A stretch of DNA of 9,488 nucleotides from a virus (lineage: Duplodnaviria > Heunggongvirae > Uroviricota > Caudoviricetes): IMG/VR virus record IMGVR_UViG_2778261027_000012; one strand, given 5' to 3'. The notes below the pieces were generated by a model. The model worked only from the letters and a program-made list of their open reading frames with translations. It was not told the DNA's origin and ran no database searches. Each line of letters begins with the position of its first letter. The stretch's first letter is position 1. The position numbers and the translations under genes are program-made. This document shows, piece after piece, positions 5,626-6,058 of the stretch.

Positions 5626-5807
5626 TTTGCTGTAACGGCAGAGTTAAGTAGGATTGCTGCGGGTGCTTGAGGCTATCTGCCTCGGGCATGAACACCAACG
5701 GCAGATAGATAAAAGCCCCACCCGACTATAAATCGAAGTGAGGCCCCTATATGCTCGTCACATATAGATTGCCTCTTACGGACCGAAAGGTCAAGGAGAA
5801 GCAGGCT
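5626..5807 (+). promoter_or_regulatory. hok-type promoter and structured mRNA leader (tac/mok-like region)
   Basis: Candidate promoter TTTGCT (5626-5631), 17 bp, TAGGAT (5649-5654). The downstream leader GCTTGAGGCTATCTGCCTC...GGCAGATAGATAAAAGCCCC...GAGGCCCCTATATGCTCGTCACATATAGATTGCCTCTTAC...CAAGGAGAAG parallels what I recall of the plasmid R1 hok mRNA 5' region. Confidence 0.5.
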
Positions 5808-5963
5808 ATGAAGCAGCAAAAGGCGATGTTAATCGCCCTGATCGTCATCTGTTTAACCGTCATAGTGACGGCACTGGTAACGAGGAAAGACCTCTGCGAG
5901 GTACGAATCCGAACCGGCCAGACGGAGGTCGCTGTCTTCACAGCTTACGAACCTGAGGAGTAA
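5808..5963 (+). CDS. hokD: Hok/Gef-family membrane toxin (51 aa), HokD/RelF-like
   Basis: MKQQKAMLIALIVICLTVIVTALVTRKDLCEVRIRTGQTEVAVFTAYEPEE: single TM helix plus the conserved RK.LCE.R...G..EVA.F.AYE Hok signature. SD AAGGAGA 8 nt upstream. The ORF-track 70-aa version starts at an in-frame upstream ATG (5751) at the mok-equivalent position. Confidence 0.85.
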   Translation: MKQQKAMLIALIVICLTVIVTALVTRKDLCEVRIRTGQTEVAVFTAYEPEE

Positions 5964-6031
5964 GAGACCAGGCGGGGGAGAAATCCCTCGCCACCTCTGA
6001 TGTGTCAGGCATCCTCAACGCACCCGCACTT

Positions 6032-6058
6032 AACCCGCTTCGGCGGGTTTTTGTTTTT
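6032..6058 (+). terminator. Intrinsic terminator downstream of hok
   Basis: AACCCGC-TTCG-GCGGGTT perfect 7-bp stem with UUCG tetraloop (6032-6049), followed by TTTTTGTTTTT. Confidence 0.7.

Follow-up and report, generated by a model that had tools for sequence, protein, structure and literature searches.

The question raised by this hok-family locus is whether it still encodes the antisense RNA that would hold its toxin in check. A preliminary description of the window, by which we mean the whole 9,488-nucleotide stretch of DNA analysed here, had recognised a Hok-family toxin gene with an R1-like mRNA leader and a terminator of its own, and this reading was borne out by the RF01794 and PF01848 matches and by the terminator at 6032-6049. 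The sequence elements that it listed (the ORF, the upstream ATG, the terminator, the minus-strand hexamers and the lack of relBE) were all found where it had placed them. We conclude that the region from about 5619 to 6058 is most probably an intact hok/mok/sok type I toxin-antitoxin cassette of the hokW-sokW kind, carrying the hokD toxin allele and working by a mechanism that we assign to it by homology. What we observed directly is the identity of the sequence, the families to which it belongs, its potential for RNA pairing and the intactness of every element (Table 1).

Table 1 Elements of the hok/mok/sok cassette in the window, in order of position.
Feature	Position	Strand	Details and basis
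hok promoter (predicted)	5626-5654	+	-35 TTTGCT (5626-5631), 17-bp spacer, -10 TAGGAT (5649-5654), +1 5661; read from sequence
hok mRNA 5' leader, Rfam RF01794	5661-5810	+	103.9 bits, cut-off 59, E 2.5e-23, full model 1-157
tac element GGGUGCUUGAGG	5661-5672	+	5' end of hok mRNA; first position of RF01794 match; pairs with 6013-6025
Sok RNA (predicted), 49 nt	5759 to 5711	-	11-nt single-stranded 5' tail GACGAGCAUAU, terminator hairpin, UUUU; alignment with sokW and sokC
ucb / anti-SD box AAGCCCCACCC	5713-5723	+	pairs with mok SD; role by analogy with R1 (PMC9841398)
mok Shine-Dalgarno GAGG	5740-5743	+	7 nt 5' of mok ATG; read from sequence
Sok target hairpin	5747-5767	+	7-bp stem CUAUAUG/CAUAUAG, loop CUCGUCA, mok AUG inside; MFE fold
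mok reading frame, 70 aa, in frame with hok	5751-5963	+	ATG 57 nt 5' of hok ATG
sok promoter (predicted)	5766-5794	-	-35 TTGACC (5794 to 5789), 17-bp spacer, -10 CAATCT (5771 to 5766); as K-12 sokC
hok Shine-Dalgarno AAGGAG	5793-5798	+	read from sequence; partly paired with 5775-5777 in MFE fold
hok toxin gene, 51 aa, hokD allele	5808-5963	+	Pfam PF01848 and HokD identity
fbi element CCUCAACGCACCC	6013-6025	+	complementary to tac, C6019 bulged; 12 base pairs in MFE fold
intrinsic terminator	6032-6058	+	7-bp stem AACCCGC-TTCG-GCGGGTT (6032-6049), UUCG loop, T run; sequence

The prophage whose nin region contains the cassette is lambdoid and Qin-like, of the PPompW type, and resides in Shiga-toxin-producing E. 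coli (STEC). Its Qin-like character is indicated by the gene order dicA, dicC, replication genes, paa/adfO, hok, rem, ydfU, rusA, Q and three tRNAs. Over 501 bases round the locus, identity is 100% with ten deposited phage records that include PPompW (five are PPompW phages, the other five Stx2a-converting STEC phages) and 99.8% with an eleventh. The locus is already known, its exact sequence being both deposited and annotated: the toxin ORF is named gef, 'phage maintenance protein', in the PPompW phage records and hokD in RefSeq E. coli chromosomes. Of 5426 complete E. coli genomes, 4721 have the cassette, which is far above chance, and in 3786 of the 5426 at least one copy covers the full cassette to at least 80%. 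The exact 73-nt allele of the promoter and mok start occurs in 588 of the 5426 genomes, O157:H7, O111 and O103 strains included, and hokD is annotated beneath it in 17 of the 18 full-length rows among the matches listed. Because these 588 genomes hold near-identical prophage copies (at least 99% identical), their number says little about selection.

Two features of the surroundings are recorded here. The gene upstream, called a moron in the preliminary description, is paa/adfO (porcine attaching-effacing associated protein / adherence factor; 252 aa, 4714-5472), an annotation taken from an identical phage record; its product has a periplasmic solute-binding-protein fold (SBP_bac_11, 118 bits), and the gene has its own terminator-like hairpin at 5479-5492. 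The three tRNAs, downstream of the Q antiterminator, are Met(CAT) at 9094-9169, Lys(TTT) at 9171-9246 and Arg(TCT) at 9260-9334; the Rfam gathering search returned the Met and Arg tRNAs only.

The toxin matches the Pfam HOK_GEF family (PF01848) with 82.9 bits against a cut-off of 22, and 51 of its 51 residues are identical to K-12 HokD. Its codon 47 is TAC followed by G (5946-5949), which gives a UACG motif; in hokB, motifs of this type undergo A-to-I editing by TadA, with Tyr recoded to Cys, and a 2026 preprint reports the same for hokC, hokD and hokE. The Rfam search proposed in the preliminary description confirmed the leader: when the whole window was searched at gathering thresholds, RF01794 was the sole non-tRNA match and lay on the sense strand, well above its cut-off. 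An E-value search of Rfam with both strands of 651 bases returned nothing further above threshold. On the sense strand the same model also matches K-12 hokC at 118.3 bits, 933W at 113.5 and an R1-type plasmid locus at 88.9. RF01794 is labelled 'sok', yet it ends in the hok AUG and matches the sense strand, so that it really describes the hok leader.

Two further Rfam matches were noted. The hok 3' UTR (5972-6053, two hairpins and the terminator) gave a full-length, sub-threshold match to isrK, an sRNA of the Salmonella Gifsy-1 prophage, with a score of 24.9 bits where the cut-off is 50 (E 0.003 when 651 bases were searched and 0.0006 when 141 were); we did not accept this homology, as the alignment rests mostly on two generic hairpins. 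In 933W (L001, 447-535), a match to sRNA-Xcc1 (69.1 bits, cut-off 53) lies ~2.4 kb upstream of hokW.

The predicted hok promoter aligns with the promoter region of 933W hokW and would be active. Position 5652 of the window -10 hexamer, TAGGAT, is occupied by A instead in 933W and in the window-type loci L027, L050, L102 and L120, the hexamer being TAGAAT in L027, L050, L120 and 933W and TAAAAT in L102; the paa-linked copy thus appears to have a slightly poorer toxin promoter. A consensus scan of 5400-6200 found a sole promoter-like site, TTGAAG-18-TAGAAT on the plus strand at 6072-6101, between the hok terminator, which it closely follows, and rem (6181-6441).

For the R1 mechanism we took the elements (tac, fbi, ucb and mok) as summarised in PMC9841398. 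Folding of the full-length 398-nt transcript, a check that the preliminary description had also suggested, gave -166.3 kcal/mol (z = -6.8 versus shuffles), and the tac-fbi pairing for which it had proposed to look was present in silico in the MFE fold. The duplex of tac with the 3' UTR has a predicted energy of -21.5 kcal/mol, equalled by 27 of 2000 shuffled 3' UTRs, and the bases of the tac/fbi end pairing are GGGUGCUU/AACGCACC. A gapless search for the tac complement missed fbi owing to the bulged C, and the fold and duplex calculation were used in its place. In the same fold 5715-5719 pair with 5740-5744, by which the mok SD is sequestered, and the tac-ucb duplex amounts to -13.4 kcal/mol. 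The MFE fold of the 3'-truncated mRNA was without the canonical tac-ucb switch, tac being paired with another 3' partner; this thermodynamic prediction is not decisive. Within the Sok target hairpin, the loop bases CUCG can be read as YUNR-type on the U-turn model that Franch et al. reportedly put forward for hok targets in 1999.

An overlapping mok frame with its own SD, starting 5' of the hok SD, is present in the same layout as in mokC and mokW, and its SD, GAGG, is also found in R1 and hokC in the alignment. The preliminary description had singled out the in-frame ATG at 5751 and its possible 70-aa product as a peculiarity. Both exist, but they are not unusual: throughout the hokC/hokD/hokW group mok is normally in frame, and the feature is ordinary here. 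We surveyed 120 related IMG/VR loci found by pattern, together with 933W, K-12 hokC and an R1-type locus; 109 were complete, and 91 of these 109 have a mok ATG in frame at 57 nt. Furthermore, K-12 mokC and hokC have a common stop codon, and the 933W annotation includes an in-frame, 70-aa MokW. A group of loci of sok promoter class B, defined below (L005, L010, L022, L030 and others from IMG/VR), has its mok ATG 56 nt 5' of hok; mok there has 19 codons and ends in a TGA that overlaps the start codon of hok (ATGA), a coupling layout unlike those of R1 and the window.

Neither relB nor relE occurs anywhere in the 9,488-nt window, as had been noticed before; their absence had been thought odd, whereas the relBE-free arrangement is the intact state and the K-12 locus the truncated one. 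K-12-type hokD matches the window from 5794 onward only, and RF01794 has no match on K-12 hokD. Where the window has the hok promoter, tac, ucb, the mok start and the Sok gene, K-12 has relB-relE. With a full leader and no relBE, the window does not have the relBE-hokD (relBEF) operon arrangement. Since homology with K-12 begins only at 5794 and the full cassette is as widespread among E. coli genomes as given above, the window is, by this sequence comparison, the complete form and K-12 hokD a truncated or degenerate derivative.

The promoter of the antisense gene is the point on which the reading of the locus turns. On the minus strand the window reads TTGACC-17-CAATCT-ATATGT-G, and K-12 sokC reads TTGACC-17-CACTCT, the annotated sokC 5' end lying 7 nt past the second hexamer. 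The preliminary description had reported the two window hexamers and their 17-bp spacing correctly, and had called the promoter apparently weakened and perhaps dead; this does not follow, for the window total is the same as in R1, 933W and sokC. Scored as matches to TTGACA/TATAAT, the -35 and -10 hexamers have 3 and 4 matches in R1 sok (TTGCGC-17-TATCCT), 4 and 3 in 933W sok, 5 and 2 in K-12 sokC, and 5 and 2 in the window, which is 7/12 in every case. A consensus promoter scan of the minus strand found no sok promoter in the window, and none in the R1-type locus, K-12 hokC or 933W sokW either. As the reference sok promoters are equally poor and equally missed by the scan, weakness against the consensus characterises the whole family and is no fault of the window allele in particular, and since Sok promoters as a family look poor against the consensus, a hexamer count cannot call one of them dead.

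The complete loci fall into three classes by sok promoter: class A, TTGCCT-17-TAACCT (79 of 109); class B, TTGACC-18-TAATCT or TAACCT (20 of 109); and class C, comprising the window type, TTGACC-17-CAATCT (9 of 109), and K-12 hokC, TTGACC-17-CACTCT (1 of 109, and found also in Shigella hokC, outside the 109). C at -12 is restricted in this census to the window type and chromosomal hokC. A pattern scan of genome contigs was too unspecific to be of use, 6 of its 120 loci being real hok and the remainder mostly chance matches in unrelated MAGs; its one gain was that Shigella hokC likewise has CACTCT. The two positions most critical in the -10 element of sigma-70 promoters are A-11 and T-7. CAATCT keeps both and is one match nearer to the class B hexamer TAATCT than is CACTCT of the working sokC, and we therefore judge the window sok promoter likely to be functional. 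The sok hexamers are also unaltered in the diverged window-type loci L050, L102 and L120; among these loci the differences were too few to make a shortage of substitutions in sok and its promoter statistically significant.

It could still be held that loss of the first T of the -10 killed or much weakened the antisense promoter, and that Hok is restrained by mRNA folding or the upstream palindrome only. The -10 does match TATAAT at only two of six positions, with C at -12 where T is usual; the closest class B relatives have TAATCT, so that the window resembles a T deletion; and the consensus scan found nothing on the minus strand. We nevertheless regard this explanation as improbable, given that for sokC, with the same -35 and spacing and a poorer -10, a 5' end has been mapped and a phenotype seen on knock-down, that the 7/12 total and the failure of the scan are common to R1-type, sokC and sokW promoters, that A-11 and T-7 are kept next to a -35 with five of six matches, and that the RNA downstream of the promoter is undamaged. 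Sequencing of RNA 5' ends returned exactly that of sokC (PMC2912661), mokC/sokC double-stranded RNA has been captured in vivo (PMC7373196), and knocking sokC down by CRISPRi proved strongly deleterious (bioRxiv 10.1101/2020.03.04.975888). The R1 sok promoter has been described as strong (PMC1635323), and the sokW promoter is needed for antitoxin activity (PMC8621323).

The palindrome invoked in that explanation is a perfect 24-bp one, CCGATATGGGAATTCCCATATCGG, at 5592-5615, 11 bp upstream of the hok -35 and with no T run after it. The intergenic segment that contains it (5476-5640) occurs in 580 E. coli genomes, every one of which also has paa and this hok allele. Window-type cassettes elsewhere occur without paa or the palindrome, with a left boundary at 5619, and the palindrome is thus no part of the cassette. 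The earlier suggestion that it may control the toxin was rejected, as far as the cassette itself is concerned, because window-type loci occur without it.

Returning to a functional sok promoter as the preferred reading, we find a cis-encoded Sok gene opposite the mok start, with promoter, free 5' tail and terminator hairpin all present and at positions that agree with sokW and sokC. The predicted +1 is G5759, placed by the annotated 5' ends of sokW (direct offset) and sokC. The tail, the hairpin and the U-run are all intact in the window. The hairpin is predicted at -18.7 kcal/mol on the Sok strand versus -8.3 on the sense strand, 10.4 more stable, and the same asymmetry was found in 38 of 38 distinct Sok sequences of the census (mean difference -10.7 kcal/mol), a signature of selection on the antisense strand. 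In the literature, EHEC included, we found no expression data for this allele; by analogy with sokC and sokW, Sok would be transcribed from it and would repress hok.

The window allele differs from its relatives in one segment. Window segments are 81-100% identical to other hokD/hokW loci, except for the ucb/Sok-hairpin cassette at 5713-5746, which is 39-53% identical to relatives and 22 nt shorter than most, so that the hok AUG lies at mRNA nt 147 versus 169-170 in the relatives. The target loop CUCGUCA and the Sok 5' tail are likewise private to this allele. It is conceivable, though in our view unlikely, that the window-type cassette is a distinct variant in both specificity and tuning, in which the private Sok hairpin/ucb (5713-5746) and loop go together with a low Sok:hok balance. 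Were this so, Sok from the window would not cross-react with the many other Sok RNAs of an STEC genome, C at -12 in the sok -10 and the weakened hok -10 might together set an unusually low balance, and at such a balance the toxin would fire more readily on prophage induction. If Sok output proved measurably lower, the locus would be a small natural experiment in type I toxin-antitoxin tuning within Shiga-toxin prophages.

The poorer hok -10 also bears on another explanation, namely that the whole cassette is a silent relic, a view put forward for several chromosomal hok loci: structurally complete yet too weakly expressed to matter and kept only since the prophage is young and widely sampled. 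Its TAGGAT in place of the TAGAAT of other window-type loci would fit this reading, as would the near identity of the 588 copies, which leaves little time for decay; chromosomal hok loci have, moreover, been reported in earlier work as unable to mediate post-segregational killing. We think this unlikely. No inactivating change is found in the ORF, either SD, tac/fbi, the terminator or the Sok gene, and the toxin does not differ from HokD of K-12 at any residue. Its prophage homologue hokW-sokW is an active locus with an effect on phage release, and knock-down of sokC is deleterious though hokC had been presumed inactive.

An intact, Sok-controlled cassette thus remains the reading that we favour, and its mode of action can be outlined by homology with R1 hok/sok and 933W/Sp5 hokW-sokW, from which we infer promoter activities, processing, control of toxicity and biological role. 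A weak promoter would give the 398-nt hok mRNA, in which 5' tac would pair with 3' fbi while the ucb box sequesters the mok ribosome-binding site; by these two pairings the full-length mRNA would be neither translated nor bound by Sok. Slow 3' trimming would strip fbi and open the mok start, and mok translation would then let ribosomes reach hok. The in-frame position of mok may also allow a 70-aa Mok-Hok product to be made. While transcription of the cassette lasts, a short, unstable Sok would be produced from the minus-strand promoter and pair with the mok start hairpin, and the duplex would be destroyed. When Sok synthesis stops, through loss of the element or prophage induction, Hok would be made and the inner membrane damaged. 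On this outline the cassette would serve as a maintenance or induction-linked killer module. As a discovery the locus counts for little, the family being a textbook paradigm with a prophage homologue already studied experimentally. Its value is corrective: the K-12 hokD is the degenerate one, an in-frame mok is normal, and hexamer counts are no guide to dead Sok promoters.

Among known systems, plasmid R1 hok/sok (parB) has the same set and order of elements as the window, an mRNA likewise of 398 nt, an RF01794 match and a Sok start 7 nt after the -10. The tac/fbi end pairing is kept in both with different bases, those of R1 being presumably GGCGCUU/AAGCGCC; we read them by eye from an R1 sequence of which the first 332 nt were confirmed (100% identical to thousands of plasmids) and the 3' fbi part is presumed. 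R1 mok is out of frame, as the preliminary description had correctly stated, with an offset of 58 nt versus the in-frame 57 nt of the window. The sok promoters differ (TTGCGC-17-TATCCT in R1 versus TTGACC-17-CAATCT), the hok coding sequences are 52% identical at the DNA level, and the R1 locus is borne by a plasmid.

The two K-12 loci resemble the window in complementary parts. Qin hokD (relF, relBEF operon) encodes a Hok protein identical to that of the window, its DNA is 98-100% identical from 5794 to the terminator, and the genes downstream are the same (rem, ydfU, Q-like); unlike the window, it has no hok promoter, tac, ucb, mok start, Sok gene or sok -10. The hokC-mokC-sokC locus (gef) has the sok promoter architecture of the window (TTGACC, 17 bp, CAnTCT, G start 7 nt downstream), a similarly short leader (hok AUG at nt 150 versus 147), an in-frame mok and nearly the window's mok start context, CCUAUAUGCU. 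Its toxin gene is 85% identical to that of the window in DNA, its Sok hairpin sequence differs, its 3' UTR with fbi is severed by IS186, unlike that of the window, and it is a core-chromosome locus whereas the window locus belongs to a prophage.

The 933W/Sp5 hokW-mokW-sokW locus (AF125520; Takada et al. [quoted passage not shown] It is 86% identical to the window in DNA over 5619-6035 and 98% in the tac/5' hairpin segment, and its in-frame, 70-aa mokW, its 57-nt offset and its predicted Sok start position are all as in the window. The differences lie in the sok promoter (TTGCCT-17-TAACCT versus TTGACC-17-CAATCT), in the Sok hairpin/ucb cassette, which in 933W is 22 nt longer and 39% identical, in the target loop (CUGAACA versus CUCGUCA), in the C-terminus of Hok (…VFVDYESEK in 933W) and in the location of the locus, near attR in 933W and in the nin region in the window.
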